A stretch of 64,000 nucleotides of DNA from Scenedesmus sp. PABB004. Its lineage: Eukaryota. The notes below the pieces were generated by a model. It was given only the letters and a program-made list of their open reading frames with translations, made no database searches and had not been told where the DNA came from. The stretch spans positions 496,001 through 560,000 of the forward strand of contig JABVCE010000022.1 in assembly GCA_014905635.1 (NCBI GenBank), written 5' to 3'. How positions within the stretch are numbered: position 1 is the stretch's first letter; each line of letters begins with the position of its first letter. A program made the translations under genes and the position numbers. Shown here in pieces: positions 14,331 to 57,346 of this stretch.

Positions 14331-15306
14331 ATGCAGTCCCTCGCGTCGCAGAGCCGGGCAGGTGCGGGCGGTGCGCGCGGCGCGCGGGCGGTCGCGTGGC
14401 GGGCGCTGCCGCCCACCCCTGGCCACCCGCTGCCCGCGCAGGCGTCCTGGCGCCCCGCTGCCCCGGCCGGCAGGTGAGGCGGTCTCCGGGATGCCGCGCA
14501 GGCCTCTGGGAGCGTCCGCGCGGGCGCCGACCAATGGGGCCGCCCCGCGCGCCGCAGAGGGCCCCGGCCTGCCGGGCGATGGCAGCAGACCCCAACCTGC
14601 TCAAGAAGCCGGAGCTGAAGCGCCCAGAGTCGCCGCCCAAGAAGCTGTTCGACGACGCGCAGCAGCCCGCCGCAGCGGCGGCGCCGGCGGCCAGCAGCGC
14701 GCCCGCAGCGGCGGGCCCCAGCAGCAGCGGGTGCGCGCCGCGCCGCGCCCGCGGCGCCCGTGGCAGGGCGCTCCCAGGCGCCGCGGCCGCCCCGCCGGCG
14801 TCGGCGGCGCGGGCGCCTTGCTGGCGCAGCCGCCGGCGTGTGGCCGCCGCACGCCGCCGGCGCGCGCGGGGCCTCCCGCCAACGCCGCCCGCGCGCCGCC
14901 CGCCGCCGCCGCCGCCGCCGCCGCCGCGCAGCGAGCCCACCATCGAGTGGCAGCGCCAGCGGGCAAAGGAGATGCGCGCGTACTTCCAGGAGCAGCGGCT
15001 GGAGGCGCAGGTCAAGAAGGGCAAGTGAGTGCTGCCGCGCGCAGCTCGCGGCGGGGCCTCCCGGCGCGCGCGCGACGCGGCCGCCGCGCGCCTCCGCCGC
15101 CGCCGCGCCCACACCACCGCCGTGCCGGCCGCGCCGCGCGCGTGCGCAGGCTGTTTGGCTGGACGCCGGCGAACGAGATTGGCAACGGGCGCTGGGTGAT
15201 GTTTGGCGTCTTTGTCGGCCTCCTCACAGAGTATGCGACCGGCGTTGACTTCCCCCACCAGATTGGGCTGCTGCTGTCGTACCTGGGCATCGTGGACGTG
15301 GAGTGA
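14331..15306 (+). CDS. OHP2: One-helix LHC-like protein OHP2, plastid-targeted; 5 exons
   Basis: Transit-peptide-like N terminus; IEWQRQRAKEMRAYF..FGWTPANEIGNGRWVMFG..EYATGVDF..LLSYLGIVDVE*. Confidence 0.88.
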
Positions 15307-15872
15307 GGCGCCGCTTGGCACCAGTGAGCCGCCTCACACGCACCAGTGAGGCGCCTCACGCGCAGGCGCACCGCTCGCACACGGGCGCCACGACGCCGGC
15401 GCCGCGTGGCGCGGCGCGCTGTCCGGCCGTGGCCTCGAGGCGGGCGCGGGCGTGCGGCAGGGGCCGCGGCGGCGGCCTGAACGCGGGCCGCACGCTGCGG
15501 CGGGGGCCGCCATGGGCAGGGACCAGGGGCGGGCGCGGGGACGGGGAGGGGGCGAGAGGGCGGGGGCGGGGCTGAGAGAGCTCAACCCTCGCAGGGGTGA
15601 CGGCGGCGCGGCCGCGCAGTTTTCAGTTCGTCATCCCTTGGCTCGCGTGGTAACGGGCAGCTGCGCCTGCGCGTGGACCGCCCGCCCCGCGCGGCAGCGG
15701 CCGTCGGCCGCCTGAAACCTCGTGACAGCCTCGCCCGGGTCTTGCCCGCCGCCGCAGCCGACGTCCACCCTTTTCTCGCGCGCTCCACGAGCCCCTCCAA
15801 GCCCCGCCGCAGCGGCACGGCAGCGCTCTCTCACACGAAGCGGCAGCAGCGGCGCGCGGGCGGCGGCGCACG

Positions 15873-17530: not shown

Positions 17531-19081
17531 CTAGGCCATGAGCTTGGCCATGTACTTGGAGCGAAACTTGGCGACCTTGGGCGCGACCACGGCGCGGCAG
17601 TAGCCCTGCGCGCGCCGCGCCGCGGCGCGGCGCTCAGGGCCCGCCCGCCCGGCGGCGCGCCGGGGCAGCAGCCCGCATGTGCGGGCACGTGCACGCACGC
17701 GGCCCGGCCGCCGCCCCGGCCTGGCCGCCAGCTTGGCTCAAGGAGGGTTTAGGGGCCTGCACCCGCACCTGGTTGGGGTTCAGCTTGTAGTAGTTTTGGT
17801 GGTACTCCTCGCCCGCCCAGAGCTTGGTGAGCGGCTCGACCTGCGTGACCACCGGCCCCGGGTACAGCCCCGCCGCGTTGACCTCGGCGATCGCCTGCGC
17901 GCGGCGGGTGCGGGAGCAGCGCGCGCGGCGGCGGCCGCGGCGCGCTCGCGGGCTCGCTGGCGGCGGCGCGGGAGCGCGCGGCCGCTGGCTAGCGGCGCCG
18001 CGCCGCGCCTGCTCCGCCGTCGCGCGCTGCGCGTCGCTGGTGGTGAGGATGATGCTCTGAGGGTGGGTGGGCGGGCGGGTGGGCGGGCGGGCGGGCGGGC
18101 GGGCGGGCGGGCGGGCGGGGGGGGGGGGGCGGCGGGCGGGCGGGCGGGCGGCGCGGCGCGAGGCGGCGTCTAGGTCGGCGGGCGCGCCCCGCCAGCGCCG
18201 AGGGCAGCTCCAGGAGCGGGCGCGCGGGCCGGCGCGGCGGGCCGGGTGCGGCGCACCCTGTACTGCGGCCCCACGTCAGCGCCCTGGCGGTTGGGCGTGG
18301 TCGGGTCGTGAATGGTGAAGAACACGTCCAGCAGGTCTTTGTAACAAATGACGGCCGGGTCAAACGTCACCGCCACGACCTCGGCGTGCCCCGTCTGCTT
18401 GCCGCACACCTGCGCGCGCGCCGGGCGGGCGCGGCTGGCCCCGTCGGCGCCGCCAAGGCGCGGCGCCGGCGGCGGCGGGGCTGTGCCCGCGCCGCATGCC
18501 CGCCCCGTGTCGCGCACCTGCTCGTACGTGGGGTTGTCGACGTGCCCGCCAGCGTATCCGCTGATGGCGCTGCTCACGCCCTTGAGCTGGGAGTAGCAGG
18601 CCTCCAGGCACCAGAAGCACCCGCCGCCGAGGACGGCGAGCTCCTTGCCCGCCGGCACCTCCCACGCGCCGCCTGCGCCGGCCATGGCCGCGACGCCCCT
18701 CCGCGCCCGGCTCAGGGACGAACCCAGCGTGCCGCTCGAGCTGCTGGCGCGGCGCGGCTGGCGGCGGCGGCGGGCGGCGGCGGCGGGCGGAGCGTCCGCA
18801 GCGGCGCGCCGGCGCAGCGCGCCAACCCGGACAGCCTGGCCGCAGCGCTGCCGCCACGTCGCTGCAGCGGACGATCACGCGCACTTGTGCGGCAGCTGGG
18901 CCGCCGCGGGCCCCAGGCGCGCGCGGAGCTGCCTGCATGCGCAGCGCACCAGAGCAGCAGGCGCCTTGTGCGCGTGCGAGTGCGCAGCAGCGGGGCGAGC
19001 AGGCGTGCGGGTGCCGAGGAGTCCCGCGACCGGCGTGGTGGTCGGGCGGCCGAGCAGCGCGCGCTGAGCGACGGCGAGCAT
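17531..19081 (-). CDS. msrA: Peptide methionine sulfoxide reductase A with a probable N-terminal organelle-targeting extension (alternative start at 18685)
   Basis: [61 protein letters not shown]; stop TAG ends at 17531. An upstream exon from ATG 19081 splices in frame. Confidence 0.93.
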
Positions 19082-19145
19082 GTGGCCGGCGAGAGCGCTG
19101 CGGCGCGTGCGCCGCTGGTGCGGGCTGGTGCGGGCTGGTCGGTGC

Positions 19146-19173
<28 letters not shown>
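19146..19173. repeat. (TG)14 microsatellite
   Basis: Read directly. Confidence 0.95.
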
Positions 19174-19176
<3 letters not shown>

Positions 19177-19389
19177 GCTGGCAGATCAAAAGGCACCGCA
19201 GGTGAGCGCGACGAGCGGCGGTTCGGCGGCGCCAAGCCCTGGCAGCGGCGCGTCACGCGACCGCACGAGTGTCACGCACGCACGCAAGAGATTGAGCTCT
19301 GGGCAATGAACCCGTCCTAGCCGCCCGCGTTCATGCAATGCTTGAGCGACTCGTGCGTTGCCCGCCCGCCTCCCACAGCATGTCGGCCC

Positions 19390-19535
19390 TCACGCGAAGC
19401 GCACGCGGCTGCCCATGGCGGTGCCGCAGGTCGGCGTGCGGCGCAGCGCCGACGGCCTCCCGCCTGCCGCCGGCGACCCGCTGACGCCGCGGCTGGCCGC
19501 GGCGCCGGTGCCGGCCGGCGACAGCGCCGCCGCGC

Positions 19536-30831: not shown

Positions 30832-31854
30832 GGGCGCGGGCTGGCGCTCACGGCCGCGCCGCTCGAGCGATCGCGGGCGCCATGCTGCTGCACGCGGGCG
30901 CCGGTGCTGCTCCACGAGCGCGCTGCGGCGTCCCCGCGTCCTCGTGCTCGCGTGCGGGGAGGCTCGACGGGGTGTCCGGACTGCGGCGTTGGGCGGCTGC
31001 ACGATGGGCGATGCCGCAGCAGTAGCCGCAGCCGCAGCACACAGTCACTGATGTGTGTGTGCAGGCGTCACCGGCAGCGGTGCGGTCGGCCCCCTCAAGG
31101 TGGATTGTTGCCACGCACACCCCTCGCGAGCCATGCACACCGAATTACCAACACAAGCCAGCACCACACACCTTGCAGCTGTCCCTGCACCCACGCCGTC
31201 GCAGCCCGAACGCAGCGAACGCAGCGAGAGCTGGCACCGCACGCCCCAACAACGCACCCCCGAGTGGTTTGCCCCCCGACGGTCAGGCTGGGCGGCGCGC
31301 ACTCTGCTCAGCGCGGCCGTCAGTGCTCTGCGCCCGCGGCGCCGCCCGGCCGCCTGCACAGGCTGGCGCGGGCGGCGCGCGCCGGGCGGGTCGGTCGCCG
31401 CGCAGCACGCTTCAGTGCCGTAAGCGAGGCAAGTTCTGCCGGGTGCTGGCCGGACAGAGCTGAGCGCAGCCAGGGCCCGCTCCCCGCACGCGTCGCACAG
31501 CTAGTAGCGCATGGGCGCACCCAGCGTCGTTGCCGGCACAGCCGGCAATCAGTCCGCAAGGAAGGGCTTTCAGGGGCTTTCAAGCGAGGCAAGAAGGAAG
31601 GCAAGCGAAGGCAAGCAAAGGTAAGGAATGCCACTACGGATCACCTGCCTCGCGCAACGCCGGCGCCGCCCACGGCGGCGACCGCCCAACCGACGCGAGG
31701 TTTGCGCCTGCCCGCTGCACGCGCGCCAACTCACGGCGCGGCAGGCTCGTTGTTTGTTGCGCACGCCCTCGTGCGCAGCCTTCAGTCGTCGTCGTCGTCG
31801 TTGTCCAGGGGTCGCTGCCCTCAGCTGTTATGCGGCGTCAGTTGGCCGTGGTGC

Positions 31855-45829: not shown

Positions 45830-46201
45830 GCATGAAGGCGCCTGTCGGGCATGTTGCGGCCGGGCGCGCGGCACGCGCGGGCGCGCGCGGCGCGCGTGAG
45901 CGCGGGTTGGCGTTGGAGCGGCGCGTGGCGTGTGTGTGCCAGAAGAAGTGCAGCACCTCGGTTGGCTGGTGAGGCGGCGGTGATGCATGCGCGGGCGTAA
46001 CTAAAGAGCATCATCAAACAGGGCTCATGCCAACCCGGGCGGACGCGCAACCGCCGCAACCGCCGCGACGGGCGCCGCCGCACTCTCTCTAGCCCGCCGC
46101 ACTCGGCTCAGCTCAGCCGCCCAAAGCGCACGGAGCCTGGGTCGTGCTCCCCGCTGCGCGCGCACTGCTGCGGGCCGTGGCGGCGGCTCGAGCGCCGAGG
46201 G

Positions 46202-51877: not shown

Positions 51878-52922
51878 CGGGCGCGCGCGCCGCGGCGGCG
51901 GCCGCGCGGCGGCGGCGGGGGGCTGCCGCGGGGCTGCTGGCGCTGGGCACTGCGCACCGCCGCGCGCGCGCGGAGCTTGGCATTCTCGCATTGATTCGGG
52001 CGGCGGGCGCGCTGCGCCCCACGCGCGCGCCCGCCGCCCGCGCACACGCAGCGCGCGAGTGCCTAGGCGACGCTCACTGAGGCTGGCAGCCGGCGGGCGG
52101 CCGAAGGAGGGGGGCGTTCCGGCTCCGCTGCCGCAGCGCGCGGCGGCGCGCGACTTGAGCCCCGCTGGAAGGGGCCCTAGGATTGTGTTGGCAACGGCTC
52201 GCGCGCGCGCCCCTGCTGCGGGCGCGCCCGGGCCGCCGCCGCACCCATGGACACGGCCACACATTGCGGCGCGCGGCGGCGGGCGGTCTCGCCCGCCCGC
52301 CGCCGCCGCCGCCGCCGCACGCAGTCGGTGCGGACTCTCTTTGGCAGCGGCTGTGGTGCCGCCCGCGGCAGACAACCAATTCTGCGGCCTATCAAGTTGT
52401 AGGCAGGAGCGCAAGCCTGGACAAGGGGGCATTGCTACACCCACACTCGGACGCAGCTGCCGCGCCCCTGGATGGCCCTGGGCCGAGCTAGCAGAAGCAC
52501 GCACTGCGTTGGTCGGTCTCACCAGCACTTGCGTCCGGCGAGGACGGACGCCCGCCGCGGCGCGGCGCGCAGGAGCGCCGCTGGCCGCGCGACGCCTGCC
52601 ACCATGGTCCGGTCTCGAGCTTGTTTGCGGGCGCGGCGCCGCCGCTGCACCTAGTCTCCAGCTTTGCGACTGCACGGCGCGACGCAGTCAGGCGCCCCGC
52701 ATCAGAGGGCCCGCACTGCCGCACCCCGGGCTCGGCCCGCACACACCGCGTCTGCTCTTTCTACTACTAGCAGTACCAGTCTTGGCAGAAAAGCATTGCC
52801 CCTCTGGTGCCGATCAATCTCGTACGCGTGGGGAGCGGGCGGGCGGGCCGGCGCTCGCCAGCAATTGCTCGCGAGGTAACCCGCCCCTGGGAGCTTGCCT
52901 TGCGGCAGCTCATGAGCTCTGA

Positions 52923-54743: not shown

Positions 54744-55093
54744 CGGCGGCGCAGCGGCGGCGGTGGGCGGCGCGTGGCGGCGGCAGCCGCGCCGCCGGAC
54801 TGCGGCCGCGCGCTCCGTGGCAGCAGCCGCGGCCGCGCGCCCCGGGGCAGCGCGGACGGACGCGCGGGGCGCGGCGGCGGCGGCGGCGGCGGGCTGCATG
54901 CGCCGGGTGCGCCCACTGGCTTGTGGCGCGTCGCCCCGGGCCGCGCGCGCGAGGCAGCAGGGCCTGCCCGCGGTTCTTTGACGCGCGCCGTCGCGATGGT
55001 GCTGCTCCCGCCCCAACAGCGTCGCCCCGCCCCGCGGCCGCCCTCTCTCGGTCCGGTTTGCTCCGCAGAAGACGTTCCACGCAGACACGCGCC

Positions 55094-56950
55094 ATGGCTG
55101 AGACGCTCACCTTCCGCGGCAGCCTGAAGGGCCACCAGGGCTGGGTGACGAGCATCGCCACCCCCCTGGACCCGGCCAGCGACATCATCCTGTCCGCCAG
55201 CCGGTGCGGCGCCGCGGCGGCGCGAAGCGCGCGGGCGGGGCACCTCATCAGCCGCAATCGCGCCGGCGGCCGCTTCGGGCGCGGCGCGCCGCGGCAGCCG
55301 CCGGGCGCCGCCGGGGCGTCACCTGCGCGCCGTCTCGCCAGCGTGGCGCCGCCTGCATGGCGCCGGCGCCGCGGCGCGGCGCGGCGCGGAGCCGCCGCTG
55401 CTGCCCACGCCGCCGCCGCCGCCCCGGCCGCCGCGCAGCGACAAGTCGGTGATCGTCTGGCACCTGGAGCGCAGCGAGACGCAGTATGGCTACCCCAAGC
55501 GCTCGCTGACGGGCCACAGCCACTTTGTGCAGGACGTCGTCATCAGCAGCGACGGCCAGTTTGCGCTCTCGGGCTCGTGGGACGGCACGCTGCGCCTGTG
55601 GGACCTCAACACCGGCAACACCACGCGCCGCTTCGTGGGCCACACCAAGGACGTGCTCAGCGTGGCCTTCTCCGTGGACAACCGCCAGGTGCGGGCGGCG
55701 CGCACGGCGGCGTGCGTTGGCACTGGCTGCCGCAGCGGCGGCGGCGGCGTGGACGGCAGCGTGGACGGCGGCTGCAGAGGCGGCGGCTGCAGCAGCGGCA
55801 GCACCAGCACCAGCACCATCACCAGCACCAGCAGCGGCAGCACGAGCACCAGCAGCGGCAGCAGCTAGCAGCGGCGCGCGCCCCGCCGACCGGCGCGCCG
55901 CGCGCCGCAGATCGTGTCGGGCAGCCGCGACAAGACGATCAAGCTGTGGAACACGCTCGGCGAGTGCAAGTACACGATCGGCGAGCCGGAGGGCCACAGC
56001 GAGTGGGTGAGCTGCGTGCGGTTCAGCCCGATGACCAACAACCCCATCATCGTCTCGGCGGGCTGGGACAAGCTGGTCAAGGTGTTCAACCTCACCAACT
56101 GCAAGCTCAAGAACACCCTCGCCGGCCACAAGGGCTACATCAACACCGTCACCGTCTCGCCCGACGGCTCGCTCTGCGCGTCCGGCGGCAAGGTGCGCGG
56201 CCCGGCGCGGCGCGGCGCGGGTTGCGCGCGCCACGCGCGCGGCACCATTTGTCAAGCATGTCCCGGCCCTGCGCGGTGGCCTCGGCATGCCGCTTGGTGC
56301 CGACAGCAACGCGGTCGAAGACCACCGCCGGCGGGAGCCCCTGATCGCCAGCGGTGATAATCGCACTCGCGACAGCAGCACGGGCAGCGACGCACACGCT
56401 CCCCCGCCCCCGCCCCCCCTGCGCCCCGCCCCTCGCCCTGCTCGCGCCGCGCTCACGCCCGCCCCGCGCGCGCCGCGCCCACACAGGACGGCGTCGCGAT
56501 GCTGTGGGACCTCGCCGAGGGCCGCCGCCTGTACAACCTCGACGCGGGCGACATCATCCACGCGCTCGTCTTCTCGCCCAACAGGCACGCCGCCGCCCAC
56601 ACCACCGCGCCCACCGCGCCGCCGCACCGCCGCGCCCGGCGCCGCGCGCGCCCGCGCCGCCGCGCCCCCGCCGCCCGCCTCTGGCCCGCGCCGACCGCCG
56701 CGCCGCGGCCCGCACCTCTGCGCCGCGCAGGTACTGGCTGTGCGCGGCGACGCAGGCGTCGATCAAGATCTGGGACCTCGAGTCCAAGAGCGTCGTCGAC
56801 GACCTCCGCCCCGAGTTCAGCAAGACGTACGGCAAGAAGGCGATCGTGCCCTACTGCGTCTCCATCGCCTGGTCCGCCGACGGCGGCACGCTCTTCGCGG
56901 GCTACACCGACGGCATCATCCGCGTGTTCACCGTCAGCCACGGCCTCTGA
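55094..56950 (+). CDS. RACK1: RACK1 (G-beta-like WD40 protein, CBLP); 5 exons
   Basis: [95 protein letters not shown]. Confidence 0.98.
56240..56377 (+). ncRNA. Intronic box H/ACA snoRNA (predicted) in RACK1 intron 3
   Basis: Hairpin 1 closed by CGGCACCA/TGGTGCCG; H box ACAGCA at 56303-56308; hairpin 2 with CGCG/CGCG base and CACCGC/GCGGTG upper stem; ACA at 56372-56374, 15 nt after the upper stem; 138 nt in total. Confidence 0.8.
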
Positions 56951-57065
56951 GCGGCGGCGCGGACCGGACCGGGCGCGGGCTGACCGGACCGGGCGTGGTC
57001 GGCGCGGCGACGCGCGCGCCCGCCCCCCCTGCGGCGCCGGCGCCGGCGACGCCGCCGGCGGCGCG

Positions 57066-57070
57066 TGTAA
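57066..57070 (+). promoter_or_regulatory. Polyadenylation signal TGTAA (RACK1 3' UTR)
   Basis: TGTAA 116 nt after the stop codon. Confidence 0.65.
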
Positions 57071-57346
57071 TCGCCCCGCGGCCGTGCCATGCGTGCGCGT
57101 TGGGGCGCGGCGCGCGCGCGTCAGCGCGGCAGCGTGCACCGCCCGTGCTCTGAACCGCCGGCGGTCCACGCTGCTCAAGCTGGCCCTGCGCCACGTTATC
57201 AGCCACGGCAGCTCGCGCCAGCGCAGCGGGGCTCGCCAGCAGCTCGCGGCCCTCTGCAGTTCGCCGGCACCAAGCGCAGCCCCGCGCGGCGAGCGGCGGC
57301 CGCGCTGCTCGCGCGGCCGCGGCTGCGCGGGCCACAACCACCGTAG

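Follow-up and report, generated by a model that had tools for sequence, protein, structure and literature searches.

Does the third intron of the RACK1 gene of Scenedesmus sp. PABB004 harbor a small nucleolar RNA (snoRNA), and if so, which nucleotide would that RNA modify? The gene lies in a 64,000-nt stretch of contig JABVCE010000022.1 (positions 496,001 to 560,000 of the forward strand; assembly GCA_014905635.1), which we analyzed as a whole and call the window; all coordinates below count from its first letter. An original prediction had placed a box H/ACA snoRNA in this intron, with 18S ribosomal RNA (rRNA) as its target. We consider it likely that the candidate, at 56240-56377, encodes a box H/ACA RNA, counting together our best explanation and the alternative in which the RNA is an orphan or serves another target. 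That it is an H/ACA snoRNA whose 3′ hairpin also guides pseudouridylation of one uridine in an 18S hairpin seems to us moderately probable. These judgments draw on the anatomy of the candidate, its base composition, and its complementarity to the target.

The candidate has the hairpin-H-hairpin-ACA layout of a two-hairpin box H/ACA snoRNA, and all of the sequence features on which the original prediction was built are present (Table 1). Both hairpins are ~63 nt long. The pocket of hairpin 2 is lined by the strands TCGAAGAC and ATAATCGCAC, and the distance from its upper stem to the ACA box is exactly 15 nt, as had been predicted. The unconstrained minimum free energy (MFE) fold of 56240-56380 agrees with this layout, forming a hairpin, a hinge, a second hairpin, and a tail at -64.5 kcal/mol. 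At 15 nt, the distance from pocket to box in hairpin 2 falls within the 14-16 nt expected of such RNAs. The corresponding distance in hairpin 1 is 12 nt in the most stable fold, which is short and weighs against the candidate; a spacing of 13-14 nt needs one or two upper-stem pairs to be opened.

Table 1. Coordinates of the candidate RNA and its host gene within the window
Feature	Positions	Strand	Basis or remark
Candidate box H/ACA snoRNA (138 nt, assuming a 3′ end 3 nt beyond ACA)	56240-56377	+	Ends predicted
5′ hairpin (hairpin 1)	56240-56302	+	Fold and spacing
Hairpin 1 lower stem, 8 bp, CGGCACCA / TGGTGCCG	56240-56247 / 56295-56302	+	
Hairpin 1 pocket strands, TTTGTCAA; CGCT	56248-56255; 56291-56294	+	
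Hairpin 1 upper stem, GCATGTC/GGCATGC	56256-56262 / 56284-56290	+	
H box, ACAGCA	56303-56308	+	Fits ANANNA
3′ hairpin (hairpin 2)	56310-56371	+	Fold and spacing
Hairpin 2 lower stem, CGCGG / TCGCG	56310-56314 / 56367-56371	+	
Guide strand GAAGAC, 5′ side of 3′ pocket	56317-56322	+	Pairs with GUCUUC 3′ of the target U and N
Hairpin 2 upper stem, CACCGC / GCGGTG	56323-56328 / 56351-56356	+	Second 5-bp helix beyond
Guide strand ATAAT, 3′ side of 3′ pocket	56357-56361	+	Pairs with AUUAU (AUUGU with one G·U) 5′ of the target U
ACA box, then GCA (56375-56377)	56372-56374	+	Abuts lower stem of hairpin 2
RACK1 host gene, 5-exon coding region	55094-56950	+	Exon 3 matches and spliced coding sequence
RACK1 exons 1-5	55094-55203, 55439-55688, 55911-56192, 56487-56584, 56731-56950	+	
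RACK1 intron 3 (host intron), 294 nt, GT..AG	56193-56486	+	Phase 0 after ...SGGK

Next, we asked what the 3′ pocket would recognize. Under the H/ACA rule, which the original prediction had applied correctly to the hairpin 2 pocket, the substrate reads 5′-AUUAU-[U]-N-GUCUUC-3′. The 18S sequences compared with it were those of other organisms, namely eukaryotic rRNA contaminating prokaryote assemblies plus printed algal 18S. In a plant-like locus with a full small-subunit (SSU) rRNA, 5.8S, and the 5′ part of the large-subunit (LSU) rRNA (L018), the best site was U1567 of the 1808-nt SSU, with a score of 10.5 against 5.0 for the runner-up. Pairing at this site comprises 5+6 pairs including one G·U, and a second contaminant 18S (L040) matches the pocket perfectly over 5+6 pairs. 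As read from the contaminant variants, the target uridine forms the loop-closing pair of an 18S hairpin whose stem covaries (AGATCA/TGGTCT, AGAGCA/TGCTCT, AGATTA/TAATCT, and AGACCA/TGGTCT).

The original prediction had assigned this segment to chlorophyte 18S. The segment is real: three papers from one group print the predicted string, and in one of them the 18S of Dunaliella salina (Appendix C, sample III of PMC7699214) contains GCAATTATTAGTCTTCAACGAGG, the exact predicted target. "Chlorophyte" proved too broad a label, as the 18S of Chlorella vulgaris (Appendix A, sample I of the same paper) contains ATTAATCTTC (AATCTTC). We assigned species to samples I and III by following the paper's listing order for its three species. 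Here and below, statements citing PMC7699214, PMC10227372, PMC10835520, PMC3941584, PMC4848094, and PMC5122169 apply to the portions of those sources that we covered. A pattern for the conserved segment retrieved at least 57 contaminant 18S loci (L001-L057), and all nine loci scanned with Rfam were SSU_rRNA_eukarya. Among the 57 matches listed, the variable positions read GTTGGTCTTC in 33, ATTGCTCTTC in 17, ATTAATCTTC in 5, and GTTCATCTTC and ATTGGTCTTC in 1 each; the AGTCTTC form, ATTAGTCTTC, occurred in none of them. A collection of viral contigs gave 0 matches for the exact 18S variant and likewise 0 for the general 18S pattern, so its zero for the variant carries no information. The five AATCTTC-type loci speak against the proposed target, as a C·A mismatch adjoins the pocket there and the contiguous-pairing score yields no site.

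Which form the alga itself carries can be approached through RACK1. In a maximum-likelihood tree, the RACK1 of the window grouped with three chlorophyceans (support 98/95), and within this clade it was sister to Monoraphidium plus one JGI protein (83/91). The 18-row tree was built from sequences that we selected (10 named green-algal, 6 JGI, and 2 outgroup sequences, together with the window), with Micractinium trimmed to its first 320 residues and a partial Tetrabaena protein excluded. Because its RACK1 falls within the chlorophycean clade, a chlorophycean-type 18S is our best guess for this alga.

The contaminant loci also yielded two observations of their own. Short contigs of eukaryotic rRNA operons occur in at least 57 prokaryote assemblies, from isolates as well as metagenome-assembled genomes; among the matches listed, the segment compared was of the land-plant type in 33 and of the fungal type in 17. 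One 18S contig in a cyanobacterial assembly (L039) carries two group I introns on the minus strand, at 752-1072 and 1401-1740 (Rfam, 75 and 77 bits).

Is this uridine modified in other organisms? The U in CCCTTTG, 67 nt 3′ of the site in L018, equals Arabidopsis U1630 and human U1692, and the C in CCGCCCG, 78 nt 3′ of the site, equals Arabidopsis C1641 and human Cm1703 (PMC8351944, supplementary table 3). Given a constant offset, with no human indel in between, we infer that the target site equals Arabidopsis U1563 and human 18S U1625; for anchors lying upstream, that table gives offsets of 59-61, and the equivalence is therefore reasoned rather than read from it. Helix 42 of human 18S is known to carry a pseudouridine (Ψ) at this position, Ψ1625 (PMC10227372), and SNORA5C is given as targeting 18S:U1238 and 18S:U1625 (table 1 of the review PMC10835520). 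The Arabidopsis table (PMC8351944) shows no pseudouridine between U1531 and U1630, which counts against a guided modification at this position.

Human SNORA5 is therefore the natural comparison, since it guides the uridine that we take as homologous and its length of 137 nt is close to the 138 nt of the candidate. The two differ in other respects. No sequence or structure homology between them is detectable, and no Rfam family falls on the candidate at E ≤10. Hairpin 1 of the candidate has no match scoring ≥7 in two full 18S sequences, including the region equivalent to U1238, and inspection by eye of the 18S helix-31 region, the other target of SNORA5, revealed no contiguous pairing with hairpin 1. 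The human host of SNORA5 is TBRG4 (PMC10835520), whereas the host of the candidate is RACK1. The candidate and SNORA5 may be related by descent or resemble each other by convergence.

We then estimated how often a target match of this quality arises by chance. Random guides drawn under three null models (shuffled strands, uniform, and window-derived) were searched against ~2.8 kb of rRNA, and 148, 380, and 317 of 20000, respectively, reached 10.5 (0.7-1.9%). For chance architectures, we took 814 shuffled windows, allowed all alternative pockets, and searched the mature rRNA of L018 (~2.4 kb, 563 U sites). Eleven of 372 such architectures reached 10.5, which corresponds to 0.0135 per window, or ~0.03 when scaled to the full rRNA set. 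This figure excludes the sense-strand intronic position, the coincidence with a dip in GC content, and the known modification of the site elsewhere. The guide of hairpin 1 was searched with four pocket definitions against SSU, 5.8S, and the first 400-1100 nt of LSU from nine rRNA loci, and no target was found, with scores ≤8 in the mature rRNA searched. The same guide did reach 10.5, with 5+6 pairs, at L018:2575 in a land-plant internal transcribed spacer 2 (ITS2). This is clearly a chance match and a caution for our reading, as it demonstrates that such scores arise easily.

These frequencies bear on an alternative in which the candidate is a genuine, stable H/ACA RNA but its 18S match is coincidental. 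The RNA would then serve another site (in LSU, a small nuclear RNA [snRNA], or some other RNA) or would be an orphan or processing RNA. The random-guide rates, the ITS2 match, and the Arabidopsis table all agree with this, as does the scope of the target search, since the 18S sequences came from other organisms and the search covered SSU, 5.8S, and only the 5′ part of LSU. Such an alternative must also explain why the match involves the upper stem of greatest stability along with the canonical 15-nt spacing, why no other site in a full SSU comes close to it, why the exact target occurs in the chlorophycean 18S of D. salina, and why it falls on a site that appears to be pseudouridylated in human. 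We consider it quite unlikely. The reading that we favor remains that of an 18S guide.

The architecture itself must also be weighed against chance. We used a detector that requires ≥4 bp of lower stem directly next to the box, 3-10 nt in each pocket strand, ≥5 bp of upper stem, a defined pocket-to-box distance, and an ANANNA motif no more than 3 nt upstream of hairpin 2. Only 1 of the 630 ACA sites on both strands of the window passed, and this was the candidate, which stays the sole match when canonical spacing of 13-16 or 14-16 nt is required in both hairpins. Several results count against giving this much weight. The detector was devised after the candidate had been seen and is hence biased in its favor. 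Block-wise dinucleotide-shuffled windows gave 0.35 passes per window (7 of 20 had at least one), and with the two canonical spacings they gave 0.55 (24/60) and 0.20 (12/60). Under looser rules, the real window had 4 matches versus a shuffled mean of 4.4. The fold pattern by itself is thus at the level of chance, occurring about once per 2-5 windows. Because shuffled windows produce the architecture every few windows, the architecture alone is insufficient for a snoRNA claim, and it is improbable only when joined with composition, location, and target match.

This raises the possibility that two hairpins stand side by side in a GC-rich intron by chance and give rise to no stable RNA, the low GC of the candidate being incidental (for example, a younger insertion or a mutational quirk). 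The shuffled-window rates are in keeping with this, and so is the fold energy, which has a z score of only -1.86 against 200 dinucleotide shuffles (mean -57.3), with 9 of the 200 equal or better. The candidate was, moreover, picked after the whole window had been scanned for such patterns. The same kind of shuffling speaks against chance once the target is included, as an architecture with an rRNA match this good is expected only 0.0135 times per window (the 11 cases among 814). The location also counts against chance. The candidate occupies the sense strand of an intron, its host gene carries snoRNAs in other eukaryotes, and the four RACK1 introns make up 897 of the 128000 strand-positions in the window.

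Composition provides a further line of evidence. The GC content of the candidate is 68%, versus 91% in the 5′ flank (56194-56239) and 86% in the 3′ flank (56378-56486) of intron 3, so the candidate coincides exactly with a dip in GC, which counts against a chance hairpin pair. The original prediction had described intron 3 as longer and less GC-rich than its neighbors. It is indeed the longest (294 nt, versus 235, 222, and 146 nt for introns 1, 2, and 4), but its low GC comes from the candidate alone, and intron 2 is also at 79% (introns 1 and 4 are at 88% and 91%). Within the candidate, GC by phase is 0.54/0.74/0.76. This lacks the codon periodicity of the RACK1 coding sequence (CDS), where GC by codon position is 0.54/0.46/0.98. 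The candidate looks constrained yet non-coding: exon-like GC without near-100% GC at third positions (GC3) in any phase means that it is not a hidden coding exon.

We tried three other explanations for the island. An alternative coding exon was rejected on the absent GC3 periodicity, and the frame of exon 3 meets a stop at 56355-56357. A repeat or transposon copy was rejected as well, as no second copy exists in the window and the next best self-match is 18 nt (E = 0.023), which also tells against a chance origin. Finally, a box C/D snoRNA found no footing, with 0 RTGATGA on the plus strand of the window. Some other intronic element might be imagined, such as a regulator of RACK1 splicing or expression, a microRNA-type precursor, or an alternative exon, and exon-like GC together with two stable hairpins would suit some constraint of this sort. 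The lack of any phase near the GC3 of 0.98, the in-frame stop, and the missing C/D-type motifs argue otherwise, and all such elements leave the positions of the H and ACA boxes and the 15-nt spacing unexplained. We regard this explanation as very improbable.

Low GC is not unique to the candidate, and this supports a chance origin: of the 109 low-GC islands that the window contains (100-nt windows, GC ≤0.72), 26 were likewise without strong codon periodicity. The composition signal is therefore suggestive, not unique. None of the 26 contained a strict H/ACA detector pass or a C/D-like motif pair. They include 19065-19437, 30948-31313, 52296-52557, 45884-46110, 15110-15388, and 21 more, and they may be untranslated regions, promoters, or further RNA genes.

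To look for relatives of the intron, we scanned metagenomes with a degenerate probe consisting of the end of exon 3 plus a GT donor, with only G or C allowed at third positions, and recovered 8 RACK1 loci. Because the probe itself includes a GT following the Lys codon, genes lacking an intron at that position could not be recovered. Exon 4 was readable after the intron in at least 7 of the 8 (L059 ends within the intron). The original prediction had looked to algal RACK1 introns for conservation, and the outcome was unfavorable. Across the 8 loci there was no resemblance to the candidate apart from short GC-rich words, no instance of the motif GAAGA[CT]...ATAAT...ANA, no strict detector pass in the corresponding intron (loose matches occurred elsewhere), and no Rfam snoRNA family. 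The positions of downstream introns differ from those of the window in all 8 loci, which we take to be distant. Because of this distance, the missing homologue is weak counter-evidence and uninformative about conservation. The comparison nonetheless shows that a snoRNA at the intron 3 position of RACK1 would not be a general green-algal feature. Closer relatives, with RACK1 proteins 93-95% identical, are represented on ~1.2-kb contigs (coding sequence 957 nt). In one of the metagenome loci (L063), the end of exon 3 is repeated, with a 1-nt deletion, ~75-100 nt into the following intron, and part of the next exon is repeated likewise. A tandem duplication could account for these repeats, as could an error in assembly.

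The comparison with Rfam, also proposed at the outset, was no more favorable. The window had 0 matches at the gathering score, and at E ≤10 the region 55000-57100 had 3 matches, no snoRNA among them and none on the candidate. Land-plant snoRNAs are reported to have almost no identifiable green-algal homologues, and 131 families are Chlamydomonas-only (PMC5122169). As green-algal snoRNAs are missed by land-plant homology, no Rfam match would be expected for the candidate. None of the public sequencing runs compared contained the intron. Against 56150-56530, each of 24 runs contained 0.06 of 36 sampled words, which we count against the candidate. Four of these runs, aligned at 80% likeness, covered exon 3 and exon 4 only, and two contigs bridged the intron with a different sequence. 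Since the bridging contigs carry different letters, they represent the RACK1 of other organisms, and the uncovered intron is evidence neither way. The lack of a homologue in the 8 relatives, of an Rfam match, and of matching RNA reads in the runs compared all fit a chance double hairpin. Weighing these with the low-GC islands and the shuffled windows on one side, and with location, composition, and target on the other, we judge a chance origin to be unlikely. What lifts the candidate above its architecture alone is the low-GC island, the 18S match of the 3′ pocket, and the presence of the exact target in a chlorophycean 18S; an H/ACA snoRNA thus continues to be our preferred reading.

How does the candidate compare with known snoRNAs? 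In many eukaryotes, snoRNAs typically reside in introns of genes related to translation. Like other two-hairpin box H/ACA snoRNAs, the candidate combines hairpin, ANANNA, hairpin, and ACA in ~138 nt, has a pocket 15 nt above ACA, pairs in two parts of 5 and 6 bp around an unpaired U-N of 18S, and lies in a sense-strand intron of a translation-related host. It differs from them in being known from sequence alone, in the 12-nt spacing of its 5′ pocket, and in having no Rfam family.

RACK1 itself is an established host. The original prediction had noted that vertebrate RACK1 hosts C/D snoRNAs, and the literature bears this out: human RACK1 hosts the box C/D snoRNAs U95 and U96A (PMC3941584). The yeast RACK1 orthologue, ASC1, hosts the box C/D snR24 (PMC4848094). 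These RNAs share with the candidate a RACK1-family host and release from an intron, but they guide methylation, belong to the box C/D type, and come from other introns, whereas the candidate is of the box H/ACA type. No C/D-like motif was found on the plus strand of the RACK1 gene in the window.

Among green algae, the CrACA RNAs of Chlamydomonas reinhardtii and the Ot-HAsno RNAs of Ostreococcus tauri are the nearest parallels, as green-algal H/ACA RNAs that are often intronic. In the covered portion of file 9 of PMC5122169, 28 of the 29 places with GAAGAC showed no Chlamydomonas H/ACA RNA with the guide pair of the candidate. CrACA13 was the only Chlamydomonas H/ACA RNA with GAAGAC among those places, and its motif is not comparably arranged (PMC5122169). 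A SNORA5-type guide was likewise absent from the portion of the O. tauri table S4 that we covered. Among the titles listed from the literature on RACK1 as a snoRNA host, none concerns algae. The candidate is also not described among the matches listed from the literature on Chlamydomonas H/ACA snoRNAs, the original Chlamydomonas survey lying outside this coverage, and a chlorophycean counterpart may already have been described.

By analogy with other intronic snoRNAs, the candidate would be transcribed within the RACK1 pre-mRNA, and exonucleases would free it by trimming intron 3 once this has been spliced out and debranched. Cbf5/dyskerin, Nop10, Nhp2, and Gar1 would bind and shield both hairpins and the H and ACA boxes during trimming, so that the RNA accumulates. 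The 3′ hairpin would be the working guide, with ATAAT and GAAGAC pairing with the 18S segment given above, and the unpaired U, ~15 nt above ACA, would sit in the active site of Cbf5 and be converted to pseudouridine. This U would close the loop of the covarying hairpin in the 3′ domain of 18S and would probably be the counterpart of human Ψ1625. The 5′ hairpin may be structural or may guide a target beyond the sequences searched.

If this is correct, the candidate adds an unannotated H/ACA guide to the green algae, where homology searches largely miss snoRNAs (PMC5122169), and predicts a specific pseudouridine in algal 18S at a site modified in human and unlisted for Arabidopsis. It would also supply a detection rule for extremely GC-rich genomes, in which an island of exon-like GC without codon periodicity, set in an intron of ~90% GC, flags an RNA gene. 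Beyond these points the biology would be routine, as this kind of RNA is already known. A broader evolutionary scenario is one that we offer only tentatively and hold to be somewhat doubtful. In it, pseudouridylation of this 18S uridine would be common to animals (Ψ1625, SNORA5) and chlorophyceans while unlisted in Arabidopsis and yeast, and the guide would either have diverged from an ancestor that was lost elsewhere or have evolved twice. RACK1 would then have become a snoRNA host on at least three separate occasions, for C/D RNAs in human and yeast and for an H/ACA RNA here.

The identity of the host gene, which the original prediction had called RACK1, is secure. The translation of exon 3 (94 aa) aligns over its full length with many solved RACK1 chains (residues 120-212, E ~1e-55), and the spliced CDS of 960 nt encodes 319 aa with a single, terminal stop. 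The protein is 85.6% identical to that of Monoraphidium minutum (320 aligned positions) and 94.7% identical to a JGI protein. Identity is 85.3% to Chlamydomonas eustigma, 81.8% to Volvox africanus, and 79.3-82.4% to seven trebouxiophyte sequences. Introns 1-3 are GT-AG and intron 4 is GC-AG.

The window is extreme in composition, with a GC content of 80%, and the RACK1 introns (79-91%) are richer in GC than the exons (64-72%). Intron 2 contains trinucleotide repeats of the CAGCAGCGG / CACCAGCAC type at 55749-55870, which bring its GC down to 0.79 and produce a strong AT skew. Intron 4 (56585-56730; GCACGC...GCGCAG) has a GC donor and an AG acceptor. Of the 7 metagenome relatives whose locus extends that far, none has an intron at the corresponding position between ...FSPNR and YWLCAAT... 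in the protein. A GC donor has likewise been reported for human RACK1 intron 2, the host of U96A (PMC3941584).

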